Of a stretch of 64,000 nucleotides of DNA, positions 1 through 13,192 are shown piece after piece. A program made the translations under genes and the position numbers. This stretch comes from Candidatus Hydrogenedentota bacterium. Lineage in GTDB: Bacteria > Hydrogenedentota > Hydrogenedentia > Hydrogenedentales > SLHB01. Each line of letters starts with the position of its first letter. The first letter of the stretch is position 1. Under the pieces are notes generated by a model that did not search any database, was not told where the DNA came from, and saw nothing but the letters and a program-made list of their open reading frames with translations. The DNA is taken from assembly GCA_045863335.1 (NCBI GenBank), contig BTVY01000012.1:64001-128000 (forward strand), written 5' to 3'.

Positions 1-729
1 GTCGAGCAGGAACTCGAGGAACTCGTCGATCACCACGCCTTTGGCGGCGGCTTCGCCATCATCGTCGATTTCCTGGTTGCCGCTGGTGATATGCCGAATG
101 GCGCCGTCGATGACGATGGTGCCCGGGCCCGCGTCGAACGCGACCAGTTCGTCGAAGCTCGGCGGGATGACGGAGAGTGTGCTGATGCCGCCGAGGTGGA
201 GGCGCGCCATGATGCGGTCCTCGCGGGCGAACAACACGAAATCGGAATAGGTGGAGATAGGACCGCCCTGTCCGCCGGCCGCCATGTCACGGGCGCGGAA
301 ATCCGAGGCTACGGGCAAACCGGTTCGTTCCGCAATAACGGCCGACTCGCCGACCTGAAAGGTGCCGGTGGCCTGGTCATACCCACGGGGCGGATAGTGG
401 GCCACGGTAAATCCGGTGGAAGCGACGAAATCGACCTCGCACATCTCGGACTGCGCGAGGCGGACCATTTCCTGGGCGGCGTCCGCGAGGAACTCGCCGA
501 GTTCGAAGTTGAGCAGGCAGACTTCGCGCACGTCCTTCTTGGCCACGATCAGGCGCGTGCGCAAACCCGAGGAATAGGGGAAATGGCGCGTCTTCATGAG
601 CTTCATGTGGAGGCCCGGTCCGCTCCCCTTGATGCGGACCAGTGCGGCGTCTACCCCGCGGGCAGAACTGCCGCAGGTCAAACCTATGGCGAATCGCGTC
701 GCCTTCTTGGAGATTGCCTGGAAAAGCAT
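1..729 (-). CDS. anmK: Anhydro-N-acetylmuramic acid kinase-like protein (divergent), 3' end truncated by window edge
   Basis: Not in ORF track; manual translation from ATG 729: MLFQAISKKATRFAIGLTCGSSARGVDAALVRI...ERTGLPVASDFRARDMAAGGQGGPI...LHLGGIS...AFDAGPG; AAAGGT RBS upstream; frame open to position 1. Confidence 0.85.
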   Translation of the reverse strand, partial: MLFQAISKKATRFAIGLTCGSSARGVDAALVRIKGSGPGLHMKLMKTRHFPYSSGLRTRLIVAKKDVREVCLLNFELGEFLADAAQEMVRLAQSEMCEVDFVASTGFTVAHYPPRGYDQATGTFQVGESAVIAERTGLPVASDFRARDMAAGGQGGPISTYSDFVLFAREDRIMARLHLGGISTLSVIPPSFDELVAFDAGPGTIVIDGAIRHITSGNQEIDDDGEAAAKGVVIDEFLEFLLD

Positions 730-762: not shown

Positions 763-2415
763 TCACTTCACGGTTTCCAACAGTGCATTGCCAAAGTAGT
801 GGAGCAGAATGTCCCCGTACCCCGCACCGGCAAGCGCCATGCCCCGCGCGCCATGCTGACACAATCCTACCCCATGGCCACGTCCGCCGCCAACAAAGGT
901 GAACGCGGTTGATCCGTCAGCCCTTATTAATACCATGGCGCTGGGCAAACCGCCAAACGCTTGGCGGATAGGGAGTTCCTTGCGAATGGTCACACTGCCG
1001 GAGGAGCCGGTGACGGTGACGGACTTGAGCCGGCCACTCACGCCCCGCTCGCCGGGGGTGATGGAGCGCACCGTGCCGACCTTGTAGCGCTGGTTAACGA
1101 GCCGCGTCACCTCGGCCACGGTGAGCCGCCGGGACCAGCGGAACCCCGCGTCGCCGCTGCAGTAGGCGTTCGGCTGTTGTTGCAGCCATTTCCCCAGATT
1201 GGCGGACGGCGTGGAGGTTGGAACCGTTCCCTTCGGAAAGTCAGCCGCGCCGCGCAGGCTCATGTCCGGTGGCGAAGACCAGACGGCATCGTTGTCCTCA
1301 GACCAACCGCCGCAGTTGGAGCTGAACACGGCCGGGATGGTGCGGACGCCATCCGTCAGGACTTGGCCGCGTGTCGCGACGACGGCGGCATCGGTGGCGG
1401 GGTGCCGGCCGCTGAATCCGCCGTAGACCCGGTCGCCCTCGCTGTTCGTGAAATTAAACCCGTTAAGAATATGCTTGAGCGCGAGGTGCCCCAGGACGTC
1501 GCTTCGAGCAGCGATGGCCTGGGCTTTCAACGCTTCGGACGGCCACAGGGCGGGCATTTCCGCGGGTAGCACCCCGGCGAGGTAGTCTTCCACCGGGAGC
1601 GTTTCGAAGACGCTCAACGCGGAATCGGACTCGACCGCCAGGCTGATTTCTCCGGTGTAAGACGCACCGGACCGGTCGCCGGGGTGGCTGACGCGAATCG
1701 GGGCCGTCGAGGTCAACCGGAAGGGTACGGGCCAATTCATGGTGTGGCCATCGGGTGATTTGGCCGTGACGGTTCCGCTGCCCGGCAGAATGGTCTCGGG
1801 CCGGACCCAGGACCACTGGTTGTCCTGTTCCAGTTCCTTCTTGAAGGCGTTGGCCTGGGCTTCGGTTTCAAAACGGTGCAGGGAAATCCAATACTCCCGG
1901 CCGTCGAGGATGTGGCCGGACGCGGTCCGGTAACGCGACCCCATGAGGATGGGTTCCACGGGATAGCCTTGTGCGCGCCATCCCTCCACATAGGCATTCA
2001 TCACGTCCGCTTCATGGGGTTTGAAGGTTTTGACGAAATTGTGGAAATGCTGGCGCGGCGGAGTGGCCTGGGTCAGGGTGAGCGACCACGACGCGCCCGG
2101 GAGATCGAGCGCCCCCCCATCATGTTCGAGGCGTATTGCGCTGGTGCTTTGAATGTCTACCGACCGCGCGCCGTGAAAGAGCCGAATCGTGACAGGCGGA
2201 TTCGCCTCGGTGACAGTGTCCTCGGGTTTCGACTCAGGCGCCGGGGCCGGAGCGGACGCCGGTTGCGGCGCGGGTGCGGGTGCAGGCGCTGCTACAGGCC
2301 ACGGCGCTGGCGGCGGCTCGGGTGAGCGGCAACCGGTCCATGTCGCGCCAATCACTAGAACCAAGAACGCAAGACTCGCACGCCACAAGCCGTGCCCCGT
2401 TAGGGGCGAAATCAC
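763..2415 (-). CDS. SpoIID/LytB domain lipoprotein (putative lytic transglycosylase)
   Basis: YLAGVLPAEMPALWPSEALKAQAIAARS and GHGVGLCQHGARGMA...ILLHYF motifs; lipobox-like WTGC followed by Pro/Ala linker; start placed at GTG 2415 (uncertain). Confidence 0.88.
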   Translation of the reverse strand: MISPLTGHGLWRASLAFLVLVIGATWTGCRSPEPPPAPWPVAAPAPAPAPQPASAPAPAPESKPEDTVTEANPPVTIRLFHGARSVDIQSTSAIRLEHDGGALDLPGASWSLTLTQATPPRQHFHNFVKTFKPHEADVMNAYVEGWRAQGYPVEPILMGSRYRTASGHILDGREYWISLHRFETEAQANAFKKELEQDNQWSWVRPETILPGSGTVTAKSPDGHTMNWPVPFRLTSTAPIRVSHPGDRSGASYTGEISLAVESDSALSVFETLPVEDYLAGVLPAEMPALWPSEALKAQAIAARSDVLGHLALKHILNGFNFTNSEGDRVYGGFSGRHPATDAAVVATRGQVLTDGVRTIPAVFSSNCGGWSEDNDAVWSSPPDMSLRGAADFPKGTVPTSTPSANLGKWLQQQPNAYCSGDAGFRWSRRLTVAEVTRLVNQRYKVGTVRSITPGERGVSGRLKSVTVTGSSGSVTIRKELPIRQAFGGLPSAMVLIRADGSTAFTFVGGGRGHGVGLCQHGARGMALAGAGYGDILLHYFGNALLETVK

Positions 2416-2428
2416 GCCGCGGACGTGA

Positions 2429-2703
2429 CCCAGGGCATCGCCCTGGGAACGGGAACGCAAGAAATGAATCGCCCTGAAAGGGCGAAACACGGACCTTGCA
2501 GTGGTCGCGTTCTCCGATTTCGATTGGATGTTGCGCTCCTTCAGAGCTTGAACATGGAGAGTACGTTCGTATCCCAGGGCGTTGCCCTGGGCTATCCTAT
2601 TGTGGCCTTTCAGGCCAATTTTTGGGATGGTCGGACGAAGCCGGGTTGCATGAACGGCGACGTCGAGTAGGGTTCGAAGAAGCAGGCGGGACGCCTGCGC
2701 TAC
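2429..2703. repeat. REP/REPIN-like palindromic cluster
   Basis: CCCAGGGC-N3-GCCCTGGG at 2429-2447 and 2573-2591; CGCCCTGAAAGGGCG 2470-2484; CGCTCCTTCAGAGC 2534-2547; GGCCTTTCAGGCC 2604-2616; GCAGGCGGGACGCCTGCGCTAC 2682-2703. Confidence 0.75.
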
Positions 2704-2731
2704 ATGGCTGGTGACATTGGTGCTCGGGGAG

Positions 2732-4594
2732 TCAATCACGTTCCAATGCGGCACGCAGGTTTCCTTTCGATTCGGTTAGTTGCGCCTCGGCTTGGTCGCG
2801 GGGGACGCCACGGCGTTTCATGAGGACGGCCACGCGTATGTCGTCGCCCGCGACGCGCAACTGGGTGTCCGCCTCGGACTCGGGCAAGCCGGTCAACGCA
2901 GCGACGATGCGCGTGGCGCGTTTGCGCAGTTTCGCGTTCATGGGTTTGACGCCCACCATGTATCCCTCGAAGATGCGACCGGAAAGAGCCATGGCGCCGG
3001 TGGAGATCATGTTGAGCACGAGCTTCGTGGCGGTGCCGGCCTTGAGGCGCGTCGACCCGGGCAGGACTTCCGGCCCGGTGTCCAACGCAATGGTCCAGTC
3101 GGCAATGCTGTGCGCAGAGGGATTGCAGCATAGCAGGCACGTGTATGCGCCGTGCCGCTTCGCTTCCGCGAGGCCCGCGTGCACGTACGGAGTGGTGCCC
3201 GAGGCGGCGATTCCGACGACCACGTCATGCTCGCATAGCTTCGGTTGTAATGCGCCCAGATCGGCGACGGCCGCGGCCTCGTCGTCTTCGACGCCTTCGC
3301 CGCTGGAGCGGAGCGCCGCGTCGCCGCCCGCGATGATGCCGACGACCTGTCCAGGGTCCACTCCGAAGGTGGGCGGGCATTCCGACGCGTCCAGTACACC
3401 AAGCCTTCCGCTCGTTCCCGCGCCAAGGTAGATAAGCCGTCCACCGGCTGCGAACGCGTCAGCAACGCGCTGCACCATATGAGCGATCGGTGCGCGGGCG
3501 GCGCGCGTGGCGTCGACGGCTTCCTGGTCAGCGTCGCACATGCGCGCAACGATGGCGTCGGCGGTGAGGGTGTCGAGGAATCGCTCGTGTTGCGTTGCGG
3601 ATTCCGTTCGGGAGAGGACCACTTCCGTCGCGACGGATCCGGCGCGAGCTTCGGAAACGAACAGCGAGCGACTGGGGTCGGCAATCAGACGCAAACTCGC
3701 CGCGGTTCCATCAAACCGCGTTCGCTCAAACGTAGAAGGCAAAGCAGGGTTGCCATGACAATTCTTAACCATCGACTGAGCACGGTCGACGAGTTCGGGA
3801 AGCGCGTCGACCACGCCCCCGTGAATGTACATAGGGGCAGCATTCGTCAGTCCGGTTTCAAGTGCCGCGTTGGCAGCGAGTGCGAACAATTCGGTTAGGG
3901 CGTCAACGACACATCCCTCCGCCGCGCTATCCGAATCGTGATACAGAGCAATCACCGCCGGTGCCAGCGACGCGACGTCCTGCTTCGTCGCGGAACGCGA
4001 CCAGACGATCAACTCGGAAAAGGTGCGCAGTCCCGCAGCTTCCGGTAGCGCGTCCACCAACTTGGTGGGTCCGCATTGACCGTCTAGGGACGCGGCGGCG
4101 GCGCGCAAGGCGCGGACTGCAATGTCGTAGGCGCTGCCCACGTCGCCGAAAAGCGCGCCACGGCCGCCGAAGATGCGGGGCTGGCCTCCGGCAGTCTTTG
4201 CGATGACGCTGGAGCCCGTGCCCGCAATGACGACCATGCCCTCGCCGTCGCCGATGTTGGCGTGCAGCATGGTGTCCACATCGCTGGCGACCACGGCGCG
4301 TCGCACACCCAGCGACTGGACCAGTCCATTCGCGATGGCATTACGCAGCATCTCATTCCGCGCGCCGGAGATCCCGGCAGCGACTTCGCAGGTTGACGCG
4401 TCCCGCGCACCGAGCAGTTCCCGGCCGAGTTGGATCAGCATGCGAAGTGACTGTGGAACTCCCAACTCAACCGGGTTGGACGGACCGCCCGTTCGTTCTG
4501 CAATCGCGTTGCCTTCCGCGTCATAGAGTGCGGCGCGTGTGGCCGTGCCGCCGCCATCAAACGCAAGGTAGATTGTGTCGTGAGGATCTGTCAT
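2732..4594 (-). CDS. murQ: Fused BadF/BadG/BcrA/BcrD-family amino-sugar kinase + N-acetylmuramic acid 6-phosphate etherase
   Basis: N-term FDGGGT, GPSNP, IAGTGS, GDVGSA; C-term GGRLIYLGAGTSGRLGVLDASECPPTFG, GPEVLPGSTRLKAGTATKLVLNMIST; ATG 4594 overlaps upstream stop (ATGA). Confidence 0.92.
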   Translation of the reverse strand: MTDPHDTIYLAFDGGGTATRAALYDAEGNAIAERTGGPSNPVELGVPQSLRMLIQLGRELLGARDASTCEVAAGISGARNEMLRNAIANGLVQSLGVRRAVVASDVDTMLHANIGDGEGMVVIAGTGSSVIAKTAGGQPRIFGGRGALFGDVGSAYDIAVRALRAAAASLDGQCGPTKLVDALPEAAGLRTFSELIVWSRSATKQDVASLAPAVIALYHDSDSAAEGCVVDALTELFALAANAALETGLTNAAPMYIHGGVVDALPELVDRAQSMVKNCHGNPALPSTFERTRFDGTAASLRLIADPSRSLFVSEARAGSVATEVVLSRTESATQHERFLDTLTADAIVARMCDADQEAVDATRAARAPIAHMVQRVADAFAAGGRLIYLGAGTSGRLGVLDASECPPTFGVDPGQVVGIIAGGDAALRSSGEGVEDDEAAAVADLGALQPKLCEHDVVVGIAASGTTPYVHAGLAEAKRHGAYTCLLCCNPSAHSIADWTIALDTGPEVLPGSTRLKAGTATKLVLNMISTGAMALSGRIFEGYMVGVKPMNAKLRKRATRIVAALTGLPESEADTQLRVAGDDIRVAVLMKRRGVPRDQAEAQLTESKGNLRAALERD

Positions 4595-5883
4595 GAGACT
4601 CGCGCTGCCTGCGCATACTTCTCCACGATCCCGACACGGATCGTGCCGTTCTCGCAGATGTCCTTGTAGAGATAGGCGCTTGGGTTGGGCGTCCGCGCGA
4701 GGGTCTCGCGATCGACGTGGACCAATCCGTACCGCGCGGCATATCCGTCGATCCATTCAAAGCCATCCAACATGGAGCGATGAAAATAGCCGCGCACATG
4801 GATACCTTGCGCGAGGGCTTCCTGCACGATCGCCAGATGATTCACGAGGTATGCGCACCGCGCGGCGTCATCCGTTGTATCGAGGCCATTTCCGGTTATG
4901 TAAATGGGCTTTCCGTATTCGGAAATCGTTTTGAGCACTTCCCGCAGCCCCTCCGGGTCCGTTTCATACCGGGGGGGTCGTATCGGACTTCCCGTTGGAT
5001 CGGTTAATGCCCGAAAGAACTGTCGCGGTTTCCCGGCGCGAAAGCAGACGCGCTCTTTTCCGTAATACGAAACCGCGATAAAATCCGCGCCCCCCCCCAG
5101 ACGTCGCGCACCACCGAGCGGAAACGGGGCCTCGTCCCGAATCATCGCCGCGGGAAACAGGTCGTTGGCCCGGCGCATTTCACGGCGCGCCGCCCTCAGG
5201 TCCCAGGCGCTCTCTTCGTTTACCGGCACGCAATTGCGCGCGCGGATGGAAAGGCCCACTGCGGCCTCCGGCTGAAGGCGTTGGATGATGGCGTAGCTCT
5301 CCGCTTGGGCGTGCATCAGCGCGTTCAACGCAGTGAATATAGACCAAATGCCGCGCCGCCCCGGAGGCCATTGTCCTTCGAGCCACGCCATGGTGGCGAG
5401 GTGTTCCGGTTCCAGCAACGGAATCCAATGCGCGCAGTATTCGGAAAGGGCCTCGACGACGCGCTGCACAAAAGCGCCGAAGGTGCGCGCTGCGTCGCGC
5501 TGCAACCATCCTCCCCGATCGGCAAACCAGGCCGGCAACGTCACATGATTGAGCGCGCAGATGGGCGTCATGCCGCGCCGCCGCAGGGCCTCCGCGACGT
5601 GTGCGTAATGAACGAGCGCCTCGGGATCGAAATGGTCGGGTTCGGGCTGGACCCGGCTCCACTCGATCGAAAACAGATGCGCGTTGTGACCCAGTTTGCG
5701 CGCGAGTTCGAAATCCGATTCGTAGTGTTCGAAATGCTCCGAGGCGCGACTCGACGTGCGACGGTCGGCGATGCGGCCGGGACGCTGTTCCCAGCGCCAC
5801 CAATCGGCATTAAAGTTGCCCCCTTCCACTTTGTACGCGGACGTAGTGGCTCCCCAGAGAAAGTCTTTCGGAAAGGCGTTCAC
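4591..5883 (-). CDS. Glycoside hydrolase family 1-fold protein with non-canonical active site
   Basis: FPKDFLWGATTSAYKVEG, FSIEWSRVQP, GYFHRSMLDGFEW; LEP and ITGNG in place of NEP and ITENG; GTG start 5883 with GGAG RBS. Confidence 0.9.
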   Translation of the reverse strand: MNAFPKDFLWGATTSAYKVEGGNFNADWWRWEQRPGRIADRRTSSRASEHFEHYESDFELARKLGHNAHLFSIEWSRVQPEPDHFDPEALVHYAHVAEALRRRGMTPICALNHVTLPAWFADRGGWLQRDAARTFGAFVQRVVEALSEYCAHWIPLLEPEHLATMAWLEGQWPPGRRGIWSIFTALNALMHAQAESYAIIQRLQPEAAVGLSIRARNCVPVNEESAWDLRAARREMRRANDLFPAAMIRDEAPFPLGGARRLGGGADFIAVSYYGKERVCFRAGKPRQFFRALTDPTGSPIRPPRYETDPEGLREVLKTISEYGKPIYITGNGLDTTDDAARCAYLVNHLAIVQEALAQGIHVRGYFHRSMLDGFEWIDGYAARYGLVHVDRETLARTPNPSAYLYKDICENGTIRVGIVEKYAQAARVS

Positions 5884-5988
5884 ACGGTACTCCCCACCGC
5901 GTCTCATGTCTGATGTCCGCCAGCCAGCAGCGGGGTGACAACGGTGCGCCCCAATGGTAGCATGGCCGTCTCGCATGGAGAAAACGGA

Positions 5989-6936
5989 ATGACAACCAAC
6001 GAGGTGGCCGTACTGATGGCCTTGCTCCGGATACCCGGCGCAGGAACGGTGTCCGCGCGACGCGCCGTGGCCTTGGCGGCGCACCTCGGCGTTCCGCTCG
6101 ATGCGCTTCCACTCATTCCCACACGGCAACTGTTGGAGCAGTTCCCGACGAGTCAGACCGATCAATTGGCGTCTTTCCTTCCGCAATGTACCGGGGAAGC
6201 CTGCGACCATGAGGTGAGGTTCCTGGATCGTATACTCCGGTCGGGAGCCCAAGTCATCACCTGCGCGGACGGTGACTATCCCGATTCACTCGCTCGCGAC
6301 TTGGGGAATCGGGCGCCCGCCCTGCTTTTCCTGGCAGGCGATCGGGAACTGCTCGAAGCGCCTTCGGCCGCGGTCGTTGGCGCGCGGGAAGTCAGCCGGC
6401 GCGGTGCGATGCTGGCAGGCGAAACCGCAGCCGTCTTCGCGGGCGCCGGCATCAACGTGGTGAGCGGCGGCGCGACGGGGGTCGATTCGGCGGCCCATGC
6501 GACGGCGCTGGCGCATGGCGGTACGACGGTCGTCGTATTGCCGCAGGGTCTGTTACCCTTCCGCGGTTCGCGCGAGTTGCTGCAAGCGGTGGAGGACGGC
6601 CGTGCGGCGATTCTGAGCGAGTTCTTGCCCGACATGACGTGGCAAACCCACGCCGCGGTAACGCGCAACGCGACGATCAGCGCGCTGTCGAACTTGGTCT
6701 GCGTCATCGAACCCAAGAAGCAGGGCGGCAGCGTGCGGACCGCTCGGCTGGCCATCGAGCATGGGAAACGCGTGCTCGTCTATTGCGACGCGCAGCACCT
6801 GGATCTGGGTACCACGTTGACCCGTTCGGGCGCGGTGTCACTACTCGATGCCGAGGGCCAGTTCAACCCGGAATACCTGCTTCAGCAGTGGAATTCAGCC
6901 CCCGCTCAATCCGCGGGACAGACGGAACTCTTTTAA
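5989..6936 (+). CDS. dprA: DNA-processing protein DprA/Smf family
   Basis: DYPDSL..APALLFLAG, AVVGAR, VVSGGATGVDSAAHATAL, RNATISALS, GGS..TARLAIEHGK. Confidence 0.85.
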   Translation: MTTNEVAVLMALLRIPGAGTVSARRAVALAAHLGVPLDALPLIPTRQLLEQFPTSQTDQLASFLPQCTGEACDHEVRFLDRILRSGAQVITCADGDYPDSLARDLGNRAPALLFLAGDRELLEAPSAAVVGAREVSRRGAMLAGETAAVFAGAGINVVSGGATGVDSAAHATALAHGGTTVVVLPQGLLPFRGSRELLQAVEDGRAAILSEFLPDMTWQTHAAVTRNATISALSNLVCVIEPKKQGGSVRTARLAIEHGKRVLVYCDAQHLDLGTTLTRSGAVSLLDAEGQFNPEYLLQQWNSAPAQSAGQTELF

Positions 6937-7034: not shown

Positions 7035-7925
7035 ATGGCGACAGAAGCTGTACCCTACCGGTCTATCCACGAAATGGCGGGGACGACCTTCGCGCCGCTC
7101 AAATCCCCGGCGGACGCGGAGCGGTTCAAACTCAGCGAGGCGCAAGTGACGGAGTTCCGCGAACGTGGTTTCGTCAAGGGTCCCCGTGTGTTGGACGACC
7201 GGCAAATCGAGGTCTTGCGCGAAGGCCTGGAACGCATCCGCACCGGCGAGAACGAACGGCTGGGCGAACTGTATGAAGTCGATGAAGCGTGGAAGAGCGC
7301 ACCCGAACAGAACGTCTTCCATTTCCTCGGCGCGTGGCGCATCGATGAGGCGTTCCACGACATCCTGTTCCACCCGGCCATCGCGATTCCGGTGGGCCAA
7401 TTGCTCGATACGCCGCGCGTGCGGTTCTGGCACGACCAGGTCTTCTACAAACCGGCGCGGCATCCGGGCGTGGTCGCTTGGCACCAGGATTACTCGTACT
7501 GGACCCGCAGCGTGCCTGCGCGGCACCTGACGGTGTGGATCGGACTCGACGATTCGACGCTGGCCAACGGCTGCATCCACTTCGTGCCCGGCAGTCACAA
7601 GTGGCCGCTGTTGCCGAAACTGCAACTCCTCGAAAACATGGATGCTATCCGCGACATACTCACGCCGGAACAACTCGAAGAGTTCAAACCCGAACCCTTG
7701 GAGCTGAAGGCCGGCGAATGCTCCTTCCACGACTGCATGACGCTCCACGGGTCCTACGGCAACAACTCCGACATCCCCCGGCGCGGGGTCGTCCTCAATT
7801 TTATGCATCCCGAAACGAAGAGCGCCGACGGCACGAAACCGTTGCTGGTGCATACTCCCGTGATCCCGGAAGGGGAAATCATCGAGGGAGAGGACTTTCC
7901 GATCGTGTATGGGGAAGACTGCTGA
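7035..7925 (+). CDS. Phytanoyl-CoA dioxygenase (PhyH) family Fe(II)/2-oxoglutarate dioxygenase
   Basis: WHQDYSYW, VWIGLDD..NGCIHFVPGSH, LHGSYGN..RR; AGGAG RBS. Confidence 0.9.
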   Translation: MATEAVPYRSIHEMAGTTFAPLKSPADAERFKLSEAQVTEFRERGFVKGPRVLDDRQIEVLREGLERIRTGENERLGELYEVDEAWKSAPEQNVFHFLGAWRIDEAFHDILFHPAIAIPVGQLLDTPRVRFWHDQVFYKPARHPGVVAWHQDYSYWTRSVPARHLTVWIGLDDSTLANGCIHFVPGSHKWPLLPKLQLLENMDAIRDILTPEQLEEFKPEPLELKAGECSFHDCMTLHGSYGNNSDIPRRGVVLNFMHPETKSADGTKPLLVHTPVIPEGEIIEGEDFPIVYGEDC

Positions 7926-8008
7926 AGAACGTCTCAGGTTCGCGCATGAACGTTCGTCGAGGGCAAACATGTTAGAATCTTAGGAGGAACTCGGTAAGCG
8001 GAGGCGAA

Positions 8009-8232
8009 ATGATGAACGTGAGAGCAGAGAACATCCCCGAGATTCGAGCCATGACTGTCCCAGAGAAACTCGTTCTCGTGGAAGAACTTTGGAATAGCAT
8101 CTCGGCGCAGGAATCCGAGGTTCCGGTACCCAAAGTCACATAGACGAATTGGTTCGGAGGCGCGAGGATCTCGACCCAGGAAGTTTGCTTTCTCTCGACG
8201 AGCTTCGCGCGCGAATCGACCGCAGGAAATGA
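8009..8232 (+). pseudogene. Frameshifted addiction-module antitoxin (TIGR02574/Unstab_antitox-like)
   Basis: MMNVRAENIPEIRAMTVPEKLVLVEELWNSI...VPVP then stop at 8141-8143; the -1 frame continues QSHIDELVRRR...SLDELRARIDRRK*. Confidence 0.75.
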
Positions 8233-8333
8233 GAGATCCCCTGAATCATCTCAGGAGTCCGAAATCGGGCGAATCCAGAATGAACTAGACGTAAATGAGA
8301 TACTTCCAAGCGGATTCAAGGGTATAATTAAGG

Positions 8334-8564
8334 ATGGACCAACTTACACGAATTACCTTCAACCCGGAAGTGATGGGGGGAAAGCCCTGCATTCGGGGGC
8401 TCCGAGTCACTGTAGGAACTGTGGTAGGGCTTGTCGCTTCGGGCCACTCTTCCGAAGAAATTCTCAGGCTTTACCCGTACCTTGAAGCGGAAGACATCAA
8501 AGAAGCGCTGTCTTACGCGGCATGGAGATCGGAAGAGGTCGAAGTACCAGTCAACCGCCAATGA
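8334..8564 (+). CDS. DUF433 family antitoxin
   Basis: RITFNPEVMGGKPCIRGLRVTV...EILRLYPYLEAEDIKEALSYAA. Confidence 0.92.
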   Translation: MDQLTRITFNPEVMGGKPCIRGLRVTVGTVVGLVASGHSSEEILRLYPYLEAEDIKEALSYAAWRSEEVEVPVNRQ

Positions 8565-8935
8565 AGCTCGTGGTCGACATGAATCTCTCACCCGGCTGGA
8601 TACCCATTCTCGAACATGAAGGGTGGCCGGCCGTGCATTGGTCTGACGTCGGCGCTCACAATGCCACCGATCGGAGAATTCTGGAGTGGGCACAAGACAA
8701 CGAACATTGCATCTTGACGCATGATCTGGATTTCGGGGCAATCTTGGCCGCGGGAGGTTACAGGAGCCCAAGCGTCGTTCAGATCAGAACACAGAACTTG
8801 GCTCCCGATGCACTTGCAAACCTGATGCTCGACGTGCTCCGGCAGTACGAATCGGAAATCGAAAGCGGCGCATTACTCGTTGTAGACGAGTCCGCATTGC
8901 GGGTGCGCCTCCTCCCATTGAGGGGCAACACGTAA
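8561..8935 (+). CDS. DUF5615 family PIN-like toxin
   Basis: MKLVVDMNLSP...ATDRRILEWA...ILTHDLDFG...RVRLLP; ATGA overlap with DUF433 gene. Confidence 0.9.
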   Translation: MKLVVDMNLSPGWIPILEHEGWPAVHWSDVGAHNATDRRILEWAQDNEHCILTHDLDFGAILAAGGYRSPSVVQIRTQNLAPDALANLMLDVLRQYESEIESGALLVVDESALRVRLLPLRGNT

Positions 8936-9019
8936 TTCACTTGCGCGACGTCTCTCGTGCCCGTAGCTCCTGAATGAAACCCTTGATTAGCCGCCTCTTT
9001 CTGTATTCAATTGTCTCCC

Positions 9020-10996
9020 ATGCACGAACCTCATGCACTCATGCACGTTGTGGCCCTGTTTGGCACGGCCGTGGTTGCGGCCTGGCTGTTTCGGGTCGTG
9101 CGCGCGCCGTCGATCATCGGCTATCTCGTCACCGGGATTGTGATTGGCCCCTCCGGGCTGACACTCATCCCGGAGGAGGAAGTCGCCGGCCTGGCTGAGA
9201 TGGGGCTGGTGCTCCTCCTGTTTACCATCGGGTTGGAACTCTCGCCCAAACCCCTCCTGCGGATGGGCAGGAGCCTGCTCATCGCGGCGGGACTGCAAAT
9301 CGGGGGGACCGCGGCGCTTGCCGCCGGCATTACGAAGGTCCTGACACCTTACGACGTCGTGCCATCGTTGGTGATTGGGTTTGCCGTGGCGCTCAGCAGT
9401 ACGGCGATCGTCCTGAAGCAACTTAGCGACCGCGGCGAAACCGGCACCGGCACCGGCATGATCACGACGGGAACGCTGCTCCTTCAAGACGTTATCGTAA
9501 TCGCCATCATGCTGTTCCTGCCACTCCTGGCTCCCTCGGGGGACGGCGGGTGGCAAGGAGCGGCAATCCGTGGCGGCGTCGGGTTGATTGGCCTTGGGCT
9601 GGCTGCCGTGTTCGGGCGCCACTTGCTTTCCTGGTTTCTGGAGAACATCGTACGCACCGGCGGACGAGAATTGGTTGCCCTGTTCGCGGTTCTAATGGCC
9701 TGCGGCGGCGCCTGGCTCGCGGCCCTGGCGGGATGGTCCCCGGCGCTGGGCGCCTGTGTGGCGGGGTTGCTTCTCGCCGAACTGGACGTCCGGCATCAGC
9801 TCGTGGCCGACATCATGCCCTTCCGCGATGTATTCAATGCGCTCTTCTTCGTAGCGCTCGGCATGAAGGTCAATCTGGGTTTGCCGGTCGAGCACCTGAT
9901 CTGGATCGGCGTGGCCATCGGCGTGATTGTGGTTGGCAAATCCATCCTCACGGCAATGGCCATCCGTATCGCCGGTTGGCCGCTCCGGCCTTCCCTCCAT
10001 GCCGGAATTGGACTTTACACGGTAAGTGAATTTGGCTATGTGCTCGGCATGGAAGCCGCAAAACTGGGCATCATTCCCGCGCAAGTGTTGGGCGCGTTCA
10101 TCGTCTGCGCCGTGGGGACAATGCTCATCGGCGCGGGAATGGTGCCGCTGGCGGGCCCGCTATCCCTGCGAGCAACCCGACGGTTTGGGTCCCCTGACGG
10201 GCCGGGCGCCGCGCTCCCGGGCGAGTCCGGTACCCACCATGTCATTATCGTGGGCTACGGCATCAACGGCCAGAACCTGGCGCGCGTTCTGAGATCGACG
10301 CACATTCATCACACGGTGATCGAAATGAACCCGCAGCTCGTCGCGGCGGCCCAGGAGACGGGCGCCGAGGTGATTGTGGGCGATGCCGAGCGCAAGTCCA
10401 TTCTCGAGCATGCGGGCATCGCTCACGCCCACACACTCGTGGTGGCGATCAACGACCCCGGGTCGACGCAACGCATCGTGTCCGTGGCGCGCAATTTACG
10501 GGCCGATCTGTTTATTCTGGCCCGTACCCGCTTTGTTTCGGAACTGGATGCCTTGTATCAGCTCGGCGCAGACCGCGTGATTCCAGAGGACTTTGAAACG
10601 TCTATCGAGATCGCGGCCCACGTGCTCAAGGAAATGGACATCCCCGACAATATCGTCGAAGCGCAGATCGCCGCCGTTCGCGCGGGCCGCTACGGCATGC
10701 TCCGTGGCAAACCCACGGACCGCGCCGCCCACGAGGAATTGATGCAGGTTCTCCAAGCCACGGTCACTCGCACGCACTACGTGACTGCCGATAGTCATGC
10801 CGTTGGCAAGACAATAGCCGAACTGAACTTGCGCGCTGTGACCGGAGCCTCCATCATTGCCGCCGTCCGCAATGGCACCCCCCTCACCAACCCGGCTCCG
10901 GACTACGTCATGCAGGCAGGAGACGTACTGGTCCTCGTAGGGGCCCACGTCCAGTTGGAAGGCGCGAAGTCGCTGCTCCAAGAGCGCGAAGCGTAG
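9020..10996 (+). CDS. CPA2 (KefB/KefC-like) cation:proton antiporter with TrkA-N and TrkA-C domains
   Basis: LAEMGLVLLLFTIGLEL, LSSTAIVLK, LLQD, FRDVFNALFF; HVIIVGYGING; C-terminal RCK_C-like domain. Confidence 0.92.
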   Translation: MHEPHALMHVVALFGTAVVAAWLFRVVRAPSIIGYLVTGIVIGPSGLTLIPEEEVAGLAEMGLVLLLFTIGLELSPKPLLRMGRSLLIAAGLQIGGTAALAAGITKVLTPYDVVPSLVIGFAVALSSTAIVLKQLSDRGETGTGTGMITTGTLLLQDVIVIAIMLFLPLLAPSGDGGWQGAAIRGGVGLIGLGLAAVFGRHLLSWFLENIVRTGGRELVALFAVLMACGGAWLAALAGWSPALGACVAGLLLAELDVRHQLVADIMPFRDVFNALFFVALGMKVNLGLPVEHLIWIGVAIGVIVVGKSILTAMAIRIAGWPLRPSLHAGIGLYTVSEFGYVLGMEAAKLGIIPAQVLGAFIVCAVGTMLIGAGMVPLAGPLSLRATRRFGSPDGPGAALPGESGTHHVIIVGYGINGQNLARVLRSTHIHHTVIEMNPQLVAAAQETGAEVIVGDAERKSILEHAGIAHAHTLVVAINDPGSTQRIVSVARNLRADLFILARTRFVSELDALYQLGADRVIPEDFETSIEIAAHVLKEMDIPDNIVEAQIAAVRAGRYGMLRGKPTDRAAHEELMQVLQATVTRTHYVTADSHAVGKTIAELNLRAVTGASIIAAVRNGTPLTNPAPDYVMQAGDVLVLVGAHVQLEGAKSLLQEREA

Positions 10997-11092: not shown

Positions 11093-12235
11093 ATGGCGCA
11101 ACAGACCTACGATGTAATCGTGCTTGGGCTCGGAGGCATGGGAAGCGCCGCCTTGTATCGCCTGGCCGAGTTGGGCGCGCGCGTCTGCGGGATTGAGCGG
11201 CATGGCATTGCCCACGATCGCGGAAGTTCCCATGGCAACGCGCGGATGTTTCGAAAGGCCTATTTCGAACACCCCTCGTACATGCCGCTTCTCGAGCGCG
11301 CCCACGCCCAATGGCTGAATCTGGAAGAGGCGTCCGGTAAAGATCTCTTCGTTCCGAGCGGGCTTATTCTCTCCGGCGTTCCCGAGTCGCCGCTGATTCG
11401 AGGACTCGATGCCTGCTATGCTGCGCACGAACTTCCGCACCGCAAAATGAGCGCGGAGGAAGCAACACGGGAGTTCCCGCAGTTTGCGTTGCCCGCGGAA
11501 CATGTCGTGTACCACGATCCCGAAGCCGGATACCTCCTGCCGGAAACGTGCATCGAGCAGCATGTCGCGCTGGCGCAACAGCAGGGCGCAGACCTTCTCA
11601 TCCATGAAGATGCGATCGCGTGGCGATCCGATGGCGCGAGCGTTACGGTAACGACGAACCAGCGCGAGATCACCGCGTCCACTCTCGTGTTGACGGTAGG
11701 TCCGTGGGCGGCATCCACGCTGGGCGAATTGGGCGTGTCCTTTACGGTGCTTCGCAAGGTTCAGTTGTGGTACGCGCGGAACGATATGTCGGCTTATCGC
11801 ACCGGGACGATGCCGTGCTTCTACGTGGATACCGACTATGGCGGGTTCTACGGTTTTCCGGCTTTTTCAGAACTGGGTATCAAAATCGCCGAGCACACTG
11901 GGGGCGATCCGGTGGACGACCCGGATCGACTGAACCGGGGACTCGACCCCGAAGACGAGACGAAAGTCCGGCGACTACTGGGAGAGACATTTCCCAACAT
12001 AGACCTGCACCGCACCCAATTCAGCGTATGCATGTATTCGATGACGGCGGATCACCACTTTATCGTGGATAAGCATCCGCGCCACGAAAACGTCATTATT
12101 GCTGCCGGATTCTCGGGCCATGGATTCAAATTCGCTCCGGTGATTGGCGAGGTGCTCGCCGATCTTGCGGTCGACGGAACCACGATGCATCCCGTGGATC
12201 TGTTTAGACTCGACCGATTCGCGCACGTGTTCTGA
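11093..12235 (+). CDS. solA: N-methyl-L-tryptophan oxidase / monomeric sarcosine oxidase family
   Basis: YDVIVLGLGGMGSA, GSSHGNARMFR.AYFE, CMYSMT.DHHF, GFSGHGFKFAP. Confidence 0.9.
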   Translation: MAQQTYDVIVLGLGGMGSAALYRLAELGARVCGIERHGIAHDRGSSHGNARMFRKAYFEHPSYMPLLERAHAQWLNLEEASGKDLFVPSGLILSGVPESPLIRGLDACYAAHELPHRKMSAEEATREFPQFALPAEHVVYHDPEAGYLLPETCIEQHVALAQQQGADLLIHEDAIAWRSDGASVTVTTNQREITASTLVLTVGPWAASTLGELGVSFTVLRKVQLWYARNDMSAYRTGTMPCFYVDTDYGGFYGFPAFSELGIKIAEHTGGDPVDDPDRLNRGLDPEDETKVRRLLGETFPNIDLHRTQFSVCMYSMTADHHFIVDKHPRHENVIIAAGFSGHGFKFAPVIGEVLADLAVDGTTMHPVDLFRLDRFAHVF

Positions 12236-12310: not shown

Positions 12311-13192
12311 ATGCCCGACAGTGTAATCACGGATGAACAAGTGCGGTTCTTTCGCGAGAACGGCTACTTCATACTGCGAAGCGTCGTCCACGGCGAAGAG
12401 TTTTCCCGGCTGCGCAAGGCCATGGATCGCCTGACGGAGTACGGCAAGCTCGGCGTCCTGGGCGAACCGGACTTTCTCTACGAACCCGGCCCGCGCTCGG
12501 GCACGCGCGTGCTGCGACGGATCGAGTACATCCTGGACAAGACCGACGAAGCGAAGGTGCTGATGGGCCACCCCTTTATTCTGCGGTCCGTAGAGAAACT
12601 GGCGGGGAAAGATTTCATCCCCACGTGGGATTCCCTGGTTACGAAGCTTCCCAAGGAAGGCATCGAGGTCCCGTGGCATCGGGACGCGGACATGAAGTAC
12701 ATGGGCGACACGCCCATCTTCAGTGTGGATTTTTACCTGGACGCCGCCGACGAAGATACGTGCCTATGGGTTCTGCCGGGAAGCCACCGCTGGAGCACGG
12801 CGGATGCGGAACGGGCCGTCGAACGTCCGGGATTTGAAACGAAGGGCGCCAAGCCCATGCTGATGCAACCCGGCGACGTGTTGTTCCACAACATTTTCCT
12901 GTTGCACGGGTCCAAGGAAAACATTTCGAACAAGACGCGGCGTGTAGTGTACTTCGAGTTCCGGACGGCTCACATCGAAGCGGAAAAGGGTCCGCACACC
13001 CCCGAGTACATACCGCTCAAACAACAGATACTCATGGATTGCATCGAGCGGCGGAAGGCCGCGCCGTATGTTTCGAAAGACGAAACGCCGTACACGTATG
13101 CGCCAAGTGCGCCGTGGACCGTGGAACCGGCGGCGGAGCCATTGTCATCGCACCGAGTGCCTCACGAGGATTACTGGCGCGAAGCGAAGTAG
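12311..13192 (+). CDS. PhyH family dioxygenase
   Basis: FFRENGY, WHRD, LWVLPGSH, PGDVLFH..LLHGS..N..RR. Confidence 0.88.
   Translation: MPDSVITDEQVRFFRENGYFILRSVVHGEEFSRLRKAMDRLTEYGKLGVLGEPDFLYEPGPRSGTRVLRRIEYILDKTDEAKVLMGHPFILRSVEKLAGKDFIPTWDSLVTKLPKEGIEVPWHRDADMKYMGDTPIFSVDFYLDAADEDTCLWVLPGSHRWSTADAERAVERPGFETKGAKPMLMQPGDVLFHNIFLLHGSKENISNKTRRVVYFEFRTAHIEAEKGPHTPEYIPLKQQILMDCIERRKAAPYVSKDETPYTYAPSAPWTVEPAAEPLSSHRVPHEDYWREAK

Follow-up and report, generated by a model that had tools for sequence, protein, structure and literature searches.

What does a protein of glycoside hydrolase family 1 (GH1) do when it is encoded among genes for peptidoglycan-sugar salvage and carries glycine in place of its catalytic nucleophile? 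Two catalytic glutamates are the mark of GH1, a family of retaining glycosidases known from textbooks, and the question is raised by a GH1-like gene (hereafter GH1L) of a Candidatus Hydrogenedentota bacterium, located in a stretch of 64,000 nucleotides (positions 64,001 to 128,000 of contig BTVY01000012.1, assembly GCA_045863335.1; hereafter the window). GH1L is the first gene of a four-gene operon and is followed, in this order, by a fusion gene for a sugar kinase and the N-acetylmuramic acid (MurNAc) 6-phosphate etherase MurQ, a gene for a SpoIID/LytB-domain protein and the gene of the anhydro-MurNAc (anhMurNAc) kinase AnmK. We found that GH1L belongs to a clade of proteins none of which has Glu at the nucleophile site, that it is under purifying selection, and that its position next to wall-sugar salvage genes is conserved in most of the related loci inspected. 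As a tentative answer, which we consider quite possible without calling it probable, GH1L would be a cytoplasmic, nucleophile-free, substrate-assisted β-N-acetylhexosaminidase acting on the disaccharide of N-acetylglucosamine (GlcNAc) with MurNAc or anhMurNAc, GlcNAc-(anhydro)MurNAc.

The reading frame of GH1L ends with a TGA at 4593-4591 on the minus strand. An intact frame of 430 residues with all scaffold motifs, starting at GTG 5883, had been described in the original prediction; the frame was indeed open, and an in-frame ATG was located eight codons further upstream at position 5907. The N-terminus read from this ATG, MRRGGEYRVNAFPKDF, has its first 16 residues in common with the homologue P0002, which is 91% identical to GH1L and is also 438 residues long, and on this comparison ATG 5907 is the likelier start, with a full length of 438 residues (the 430-residue numbering is used throughout). 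No signal peptide was visible in GH1L or in the nine homologue N-termini inspected. The Pfam GH1 profile PF00232 matched significantly and over its full length (E = 1.3e-78; 264.9 bits against a cut-off of 22.6; profile positions 3-450 of 453) and was the sole match in the Pfam scan, which revealed neither PF00933 nor any DNA-binding or signalling domain. With the NCBIfam equivalog model of GH1 β-glucosidases, TIGR03356, GH1L scored 265.2 bits, which is under the curated cut-off of 478.5, and the closest solved sequence was the β-glycosidase 1vff of Pyrococcus horikoshii (phmmer, E = 3.9e-71). An AlphaFold2 model built with 135 clade sequences gave a confident GH1 barrel (pLDDT 96.3, pTM 0.94), and Foldseek superposed this (β/α)8 barrel on solved GH1 β-glucosidases (1vff, 2ces, 5idi and others) with TM values of 0.87-0.89. 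GH1L is the sole GH1 gene in the source genome (6.75 Mb, 99% complete).

All active-site motifs noted earlier were found in the open reading frame, namely SAYK (15-18), HLFS (69-72), LLEPE (156-160), AVSYY (270-274), ITGNG (329-333) and RSMLDGFEW (369-377). The nucleophile Glu of the I/VTENG motif is thus replaced by Gly331, encoded by GGA, and the acid/base residue is present as Glu158, with the preceding Asn of NEP replaced by Leu (LEP). Reads with GAA at codon 331, which the original prediction had named as contrary to it, did not turn up: positions 4891-4893 were identical in the contigs of four other public runs covering 4886-4939, three of DNA (X3, X5 and X6) and one from an RNA library (X2). 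At position 5832, the plus strand has T in the window and G in X2, X3, X5 and X6, which changes codon 18 from Lys (AAA) to the canonical Gln (CAA). As all four other runs read the Gln codon, Lys18 of SAYK is peculiar to this assembly, be it as a variant or as an error. Further differences between the runs were seen at 4634 (X5), at 5087 and 5113 (X3 and X6) and at 5199 (X3). DNA nearly identical to the region 4400-6000 was present in 20 listed public runs from 15 studies, mostly sludge or bioreactor metagenomes, and in a run labelled RNA-Seq contigs spanned the whole of 4400-6000, one of them bridging the junction of GH1L and the kinase gene, such libraries being able to hold DNA as well.

In order to define the relatives of GH1L, a word-indexed search was run, in which 120 homologues with 39-91% identity were found among the matches listed; their source names, where given, were mostly 'Candidatus Hydrogenedentes'. 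When 1.84 billion representatives were searched exhaustively with HMMER, 1,318 proteins had E ≤ 1e-30, of which the best 150 were listed. After ten of 255 proteins had been dropped for length, 245 proteins of 350-620 residues were aligned, and the nucleophile column of this alignment held Glu in 107, Gly in 107, Ala in 20 and other residues in 11 sequences. In a quick FastTree analysis, whose support values are only SH-like and whose root was set at the midpoint or arbitrarily, 135 sequences formed one clade with a local support of 100, and Glu was found at the nucleophile site in none of them. Five of the six nearest sequences outside the clade had canonical ITENG and NEP motifs and one had ITANG, and only three more non-Glu sequences were scattered among the canonical ones. 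The change at the nucleophile site, whose conservation in homologues the original prediction had named as a test, thus marks a clade and not one gene alone, with Gly in 107 members, Ala in 18 and other residues in 10.

The acid/base site of the 135 clade members is occupied by Glu in 109, by Asp in four and by other residues in 22. The residue before it, Asn in 100% of the canonical sequences, is Leu, Tyr, Phe, Arg or His in the clade; the Arg of YRFS (position 70), found in 97% of canonical sequences, is Leu in 96 of 135; Asn272 is replaced by Ser, and Asn374 by Gly in 124 of 135. Trp369, present in 98% of the canonical sequences, is Arg in 76, Tyr in 16 and His in 10 clade members, with Ala, Glu, Gly and Asp among the others. 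Kept from canonical GH1 are Asp373 (134 of 135), Glu376 (129), Trp377 (131) and Tyr273 (87, with Phe in another 23), and new residues have become almost invariant in the clade, namely Arg34 (131), Trp227 (133), Arg230 (122), Gly275 (127), His389 (129) and Asn400 (128). Position 18 is Gln in 47, Ala in 31 and Lys in 10 members. The 'more basic' −1 subsite that had been proposed for GH1L thus stands in part: its Arg369 is real, yet shared by only 56% of the clade, and its 'new Lys' is not borne out, being Gln in the other runs and rare among the homologues. Position 113, His in GH1L, is Glu or Asp in 37 of 135 clade members; a compensation of lost Glu158 by an acidic residue at this position looked suggestive in the raw counts (14 of 22 against 23 of 113) but could not be demonstrated, since only two independent pairs were found on supported branches.

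Selection rather than decay had been suggested as the cause of the altered motifs, and this was corroborated by comparison with the 91%-identical orthologue of the closest genome, in which the ratio of non-synonymous to synonymous substitution rates (dN/dS, NG86) of GH1L was 0.089 at a dS of 0.53. The same comparison gave 0.164 for the kinase-MurQ gene, 0.107 for SpoIID/LytB, 0.014 for AnmK and 0.203 for the adjacent dprA gene, and two more distant genomes gave 0.107 and 0.158 for GH1L, with dS saturated there. Furthermore, all four Gly codons are in use at the nucleophile site of 31 loci (GGC 14, GGA 6, GGT 6 and GGG 5). Because dN/dS is low, four Gly codons occur, the codon is the same in four other runs and the loss of Glu extends over a clade of 135 members, GH1L is under purifying selection, and decay as well as artefact are excluded; the barrel, too, is intact.

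The genomic context of GH1L was compared in 40 related loci, 20 of them from the stronger matches of a first genome search and 20 new, all being higher-scoring picks and not a random sample. In 34 loci the kinase and/or MurQ genes, mostly fused, come immediately after the GH1-like gene, usually with SpoIID/LytB and AnmK genes behind them; in two more the GH1-like gene is directly followed by SpoIID/LytB and AnmK genes, and in the other four (L028, L032, L059 and L068) it stands apart from the operon genes. AnmK was inside the fetched stretch in 24 of the 40 loci. The gene order was the same in L002, from a metagenome-assembled genome titled Hydrogenedentota, at 37% identity, and none of these operon neighbours was found with the canonical ITENG relatives L003 and L004 from other phyla. 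GH1L is thus co-located and co-oriented with the AnmK, MurQ and kinase genes of sugar salvage, and the connection to MurNAc, which had first been raised through the possible binding of its lactyl group, is strongly supported by this conserved operon with its MurK-like kinase-MurQ, SpoIID/LytB and AnmK genes. GH1-like genes were detected in 26 of 41 relatives (E ≤ 0.001) and in 62 of 135 genomes of the phylum (E ≤ 1e-40), the latter number including a few matches of about 32% identity whose type was not checked. In L059, a convergent gene for an SLT lytic transglycosylase adjoins the GH1-like gene.

No other protein of the operon has a glycosidase fold, and as the other operon genes have salvage roles and the splitting of the disaccharide is the missing step, a disaccharide-splitting role is favoured for GH1L. 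According to the mechanism that we propose, the clade would have lost its enzymic nucleophile once and would have remained under purifying selection ever since. An exported lytic transglycosylase of the SpoIID/LytB type would free GlcNAc-β-1,4-(1,6-anhydro)MurNAc from peptide-free glycan strands, and the disaccharide would then be taken up and cut by GH1L. In this step the substrate itself would supply the nucleophile, through the 2-acetamido group of its subsite −1 sugar and via an oxazoline or oxazolinium intermediate, with Glu158 as the putative general acid/base, and the acetamido group would be housed in the space created by the replacement of Glu by Gly331, of Asn by Leu157 and of Arg by Leu70. 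Tyr273 would line this pocket as well, and Arg34, Arg230 and Arg369 would come to lie close to the lactyl carboxylate in subsite +1. The fused kinase would phosphorylate GlcNAc and/or MurNAc, AnmK would convert anhMurNAc to MurNAc-6-phosphate, and MurQ would turn the latter into GlcNAc-6-phosphate. Substrate-assisted catalysis goes with the lack of an enzymic nucleophile and the presence of one general acid/base carboxylate, and both features are seen in GH1L (Gly331 and Glu158).

The pattern of replaced and retained residues is consistent with such a sugar. The replaced residues, namely the nucleophile with its Arg partner and the two Asn of NEP and NYY, are those in contact with O2 or with the nucleophile in canonical GH1 structures, and the O3/O4/O6-binding residues are kept in the subclade of GH1L, namely Gln18 (as read in the other runs), His113 and Glu376-Trp377. 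A change on the O2/nucleophile side with retention of the O3/O4/O6 side fits a switch from glucose to a 2-acetamido sugar, and as the replacements are hydrophobic, they would suit an acetamido methyl group better than phosphate. Retention of the O3/O4/O6 side also favours GlcNAc over MurNAc as the probable occupant of subsite −1; as a close variant, GH1L may be an exo-β-N-acetylmuramidase acting on MurNAc-GlcNAc. Of the four functions offered in the original prediction (phosphorylase, substrate-assisted hydrolase, synthase and binding protein), the substrate-assisted hydrolase is the one favoured by the genomic context together with this pattern of replacements.

Several observations weigh against a substrate-assisted hexosaminidase. 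Within the clade, ten members have Val, Leu, Met, Phe, Cys or Ser at the nucleophile site, side-chains that would fill the proposed cavity, and the acid/base Glu was lost about seven separate times, copies without Glu158 being still found in the operon (L026, L031, L033 and L068 among them). In GH20, GH84 and GH18 the acetamido group is polarised by a carboxylate for which GH1L shows no evident equivalent, Leu being the residue before Glu158, and the placement of residues in the pocket is based on motif homology and known GH1 structures. Because three complete genomes of the same family keep the operon in the arrangement dprA, kinase-MurQ, SpoIID and AnmK, with dprA divergent and with neither the GH1-like gene nor an in-place substitute, GH1L is accessory and dispensable for the operon; in the other two of the five complete same-family genomes lacking the GH1-like gene, no MurQ match was obtained with the query used. 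NagZ-like GH3 genes scoring under the curated cut-off occur in 41 of 41 genomes, with or without a GH1-like gene, and hexosaminidase activity could be supplied in the source genome by NamZ, by a GH123-like protein or by the products of two weak GH20 matches. Finally, neither an AmpG-type permease (TIGR00901) nor Amidase_2/AmpD (PF01510) was found in the source genome, although its AnmK/MurQ route is complete; the classical AmpG/AmpD route is therefore no explanation, and other proteins must perform wall-sugar uptake and stem-peptide removal.

Since the acid/base Glu has been lost repeatedly in the clade, a non-catalytic reading stays alive, by which GH1L would be a pseudoenzyme that binds a muropeptide-derived sugar, much as the GH1-derived Klotho domains serve as binding modules, and acts as a sensor, a scaffold, or a regulatory or substrate-delivery partner of kinase-MurQ. 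We regard this as rather unlikely, yet it accounts for much of the variation: both catalytic sites drift, with Gly, Ala, Val, Leu, Met, Phe, Cys or Ser at the one and 22 of 135 losses at the other, the residues that vary least (Arg34, Trp227, Asp228, Arg230, His389, Asn400 and DGFEW) are non-catalytic, and copies with neither carboxylate stay in the operon (L031 and L024). Translational coupling to kinase-MurQ and the joining of GH1-like and kinase parts in one open frame of genome G004 (database protein P0007, 697 residues) point the same way, but the frame of the G004 fusion is shifted at about residue 42, so that misassembly may have produced it, and no DNA-binding or signalling domain is attached to GH1L. 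Moreover, Glu or Asp is present at position 158 in 84% of the clade and Gly or Ala at position 331 in 93%, and the replaced residues are exactly those that reportedly clash with a 2-acetamido group in GH1, a coincidence that mere loss would leave without explanation. A complex prediction for GH1L and the kinase domain gave no answer (score 0.00) and is neutral either way.

In a broader proposal, which we consider unlikely, the clade would be a natural, ancient GH1 subfamily devoid of an enzyme nucleophile and serving NagZ-independent salvage, either by doubly substrate-assisted hydrolysis or by inverting phosphorolysis to GlcNAc-1-phosphate. In the hydrolytic variant, GlcNAc-β-1,4-(anh)MurNAc would be attacked by the acetamido group of its own GlcNAc, and in members without Glu158 the D-lactyl carboxylate of MurNAc, which lies beside the scissile O4, would serve as the acid.

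Taken by itself, an inverting glycoside phosphorylase is an improbable account of GH1L. Several phosphorylase families differ from their hydrolase relatives in having no catalytic base and phosphate in its place; likewise, phosphate in the nucleophile cavity of GH1L, held by Arg369 and new basic residues, would attack C1 and convert GlcNAc-(anh)MurNAc and phosphate to GlcNAc-α-1-phosphate and (anh)MurNAc, thus feeding UDP-GlcNAc synthesis without ATP cost. The change from Glu to Gly at the nucleophile site with an adjacent change from Trp to Arg369 and the new conserved Arg34, Arg230 and His389 would fit such a pocket, and the kinase part, which resembles MurNAc/GlcNAc kinases, could serve MurNAc alone. 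Arg369, however, is found in only 76 of 135 members, the others having Tyr, His, Ala, Glu, Gly or Asp, a variability hardly to be expected of an essential phosphate ligand, and with Leu for the Arg of YRFS and a hydrophobic residue for Asn the cavity has become less polar, not more; a fused sugar kinase in the operon is, besides, to be expected if free sugars are the products. We know of no GH1 phosphorylase, a point for which no specific search was made.

Other chemistry on the same sugars appears very unlikely, be it hydrolysis of the internal 1,6-anhydro bond of anhMurNAc, by which the fused kinase would be supplied with MurNAc, or, in the manner of an exo-lytic transglycosylase, formation of anhMurNAc from MurNAc-GlcNAc. 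Either reaction would need only one acid/base and acetamido participation, lytic transglycosylases using a single carboxylate without a nucleophile, and users for both interconverted sugars are encoded in the operon, AnmK for anhMurNAc and the MurK-like kinase for MurNAc. On the other hand, AnmK converts anhMurNAc directly, which would make a hydrolase redundant, and the retained O4/O6 pair Glu376-Trp377 argues for a 4C1-type glycon with a free O6. To a decaying β-glucosidase or a one-codon sequencing error we give next to no credence, even though GGA is one base from GAA and the TIGR03356 score is below its cut-off, in view of the unchanged codon, the 135 clade members without Glu, the low dN/dS, the four Gly codons, the intact frame, the confident fold and the conserved synteny.

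Compared with canonical GH1 β-glucosidases such as 1vff and BglA of Thermotoga maritima (1od0/2ces), GH1L shows full-length homology and the same (β/α)8 barrel and keeps the acid/base Glu, the Tyr of NYY and the Glu-Trp of FEW; it differs by Gly331, Leu157, Leu70, Ser272, Arg369 and Gly374, by the new invariant Arg34, Trp227, Arg230, His389 and Asn400 and by its location in a peptidoglycan-sugar operon instead of a β-glucoside operon. In 2015, Andre-Miral et al. (Glycobiology 25:394) reportedly changed a GH1 β-glycosidase of Thermus thermophilus at the Asn of NEP and, from Glu to Gly, at the nucleophile, and are said to have obtained a (trans-)β-N-acetylglucosaminidase acting on GlcNAc substrates via an oxazoline. 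The same two positions are altered in the GH1L clade; the Thermus enzyme, however, is a laboratory double mutant with Asp before the acid/base Glu, whereas the clade is natural, ancient and selected and has hydrophobic or aromatic residues there. GH1 members lacking one catalytic Glu are also found among the KL domains of Klotho, which are binding pseudoenzymes, and the plant myrosinases, in which the acid/base Glu is replaced by Gln. As in the GH1L clade, the scaffold was kept under selection after the loss, but these proteins are eukaryotic, act as a co-receptor (Klotho) or have lost the other residue (myrosinases), and have no link to peptidoglycan.

The proposed mechanism of a substrate-assisted hexosaminidase resembles that of GH20, GH84 and GH18, which have no enzyme nucleophile, acetamido participation, one acid/base and a TIM barrel; these are different families, and their polarising carboxylates (D-E, D-D and DxxDxDxE) are without an identified counterpart in GH1L. 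The proposed step itself is that of NagZ, which cuts GlcNAc-anhMurNAc in the cytoplasm ahead of the action of AnmK, MurQ and a GlcNAc kinase, but NagZ belongs to the unrelated family GH3 and has an Asp nucleophile. The exo-β-N-acetylmuramidase NamZ and the 6-phospho-N-acetylmuramidase MupG are described (PMC8054146 and PMC6262408) as feeding MurQ-centred MurNAc catabolism and as adjoining murQ in other bacteria; their folds are unrelated to that of GH1L, and the NamZ homologue of the source genome is a separate protein. The protein SGR_2426 (PDB 8kap/9u98) was considered as a relevant case and rejected, being an ordinary β-1,2-glucan-associated GH1. A natural nucleophile-less bacterial GH1 clade or a GH1 protein in peptidoglycan recycling was not described in the literature searched, which covered few subscription journals, and to our knowledge neither a natural β-N-acetylhexosaminidase nor a phosphorylase is known in GH1. 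Judging from the sequences, what is new is a GH1 subfamily in which the catalytic apparatus is altered and which is associated with a pathway new to the family.

If the proposed function is correct, the clade would document a natural route by which a classical Koshland glycosidase can change its mechanism. Substrate-assisted or phosphorolytic action would bring to GH1, the largest β-glycosidase family, a mechanism and a class of substrates that are new to it, and nature would have arrived at what was designed in the laboratory as 'mechanism engineering'. For transglycosylation from GlcNAc or MurNAc donors, GH1L would offer a scaffold that need not be built first. It would also fill the disaccharide-splitting step of wall-sugar salvage in an uncultured, little-known phylum, one abundant in sludge and bioreactors.

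Table 1. Positions of the GH1-like gene, its key codons and the other operon genes in the window.
Feature	Position	Strand	Remarks
GH1-like gene (GH1L)	4591..5907	minus	438 aa from ATG 5907; Pfam GH1
GH1-like open reading frame as first described	4591..5883	minus	GTG start, 430 aa
Codon GGA, Gly331 at the GH1 nucleophile Glu position (I/VTENG)	4891..4893	minus	unchanged in four other runs
Codon of Glu158, acid/base position kept, LEP for NEP	5410..5412	minus	E 109, D 4 of 135
Codon 18, AAA, Lys of SAYK	5830..5832	minus	CAA (Gln) in four other runs
Codon CGC, Arg369, for the first Trp of WSxxDNFEW	4777..4779	minus	R in 76/135
Kinase-MurQ fusion gene, 620 aa	2732..4594	minus	BadF/MurK-like sugar kinase N-terminal, MurQ C-terminal
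SpoIID/LytB-domain protein (maximal open reading frame)	763..2754	minus	TIGR02669, 158 bits, cut-off 83.3
AnmK (anhMurNAc kinase), 5' part, last operon gene	1..729	minus	386 aa in full, beyond window start

The start codon of the kinase-MurQ gene (ATG, 4594-4592) overlaps the TGA of GH1L in the sequence ATGA (4594-4591; Table 1). Its product begins with MTDPHDTIYLAFDGGGT and bears a DGGGT motif at the N-terminus. The kinase part is of the BadF/BcrAD type, with 8zo3, an 'N-acetylmuramic acid/N-acetylglucosamine kinase', as its closest solved relative (E = 7.5e-24), and the MurQ part scored above the cut-off with three NCBIfam MurQ models. The fusion of two consecutive steps suggests that the kinase makes MurNAc-6-phosphate for MurQ. 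Fusion or adjacency of kinase and MurQ recurs across the phylum, with forms of 621-741 residues in L046-L048. In genome G004, the GH1-like frame continues into the kinase as an open frame of 773 residues (L019, contig C23, about 8001-9250), and P0007 of the same genome carries PF00232 and PF01869, with its residues 3-43 in another frame; the two genes may be truly fused, with a shift of frame, or the joining may stem from faulty assembly.

The SpoIID/LytB reading frame contains a hydrophobic segment that ends in Cys, at about residues 125-143, and on this account the protein is probably exported or membrane-anchored, perhaps as a lipoprotein. The first ~170 residues of the maximal frame are not conserved beyond the genus, and its start position is uncertain. 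This SpoIID/LytB protein lies within a sugar-salvage operon in a lineage for which no evidence of sporulation is known to us. The full AnmK reading frame (in L069) matched PF03702 with E = 3.3e-76, and as the gene after it is convergent, the operon ends at AnmK.

Beyond the operon, the NagZ equivalog NF003740 scored above its curated cut-off in none of the 41 related genomes, and a replacement of NagZ by GH1L found no support, as no anticorrelation with the NagZ-like GH3 genes was seen in these 41 genomes. The NagZ-like GH3 gene of the source genome (L038, 736-2832, minus strand, contig C39) reached 122.5 bits with NF003740, the cut-off being 207, and its GH3 domain is fused to LysM domains (PF01476, three stretches of which pass alone); the product is presumably a wall-bound extracytoplasmic hexosaminidase. 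The GH123-like protein of 898 residues, with a signal-peptide-like N-terminus, is encoded upstream of the window and convergent to AnmK (L069, 8582-11278, plus strand, corresponding to G000:C12:60582-63278). Homologues of it were found near the operon in seven of 44 related loci, six of them clear and one weak (L065, 29% identity), and one homologue (L047) belongs to a genome without a GH1-like gene.

On the other side of GH1L, dprA (5935-6936, plus strand) is divergent and starts about 30-50 bases from the start of GH1L, so that a shared promoter region would be very short. The arrangement of dprA with GH1L, or with kinase-MurQ, is conserved in many related loci. Further along, and with no apparent link to GH1L, a gene for a Na+/H+ exchanger with TrkA domains (9011-10996) is flanked by genes for two PhyH-type dioxygenases and a DAO-type FAD oxidoreductase (7035-7925, 11093-12235 and 12311-13192, all plus).

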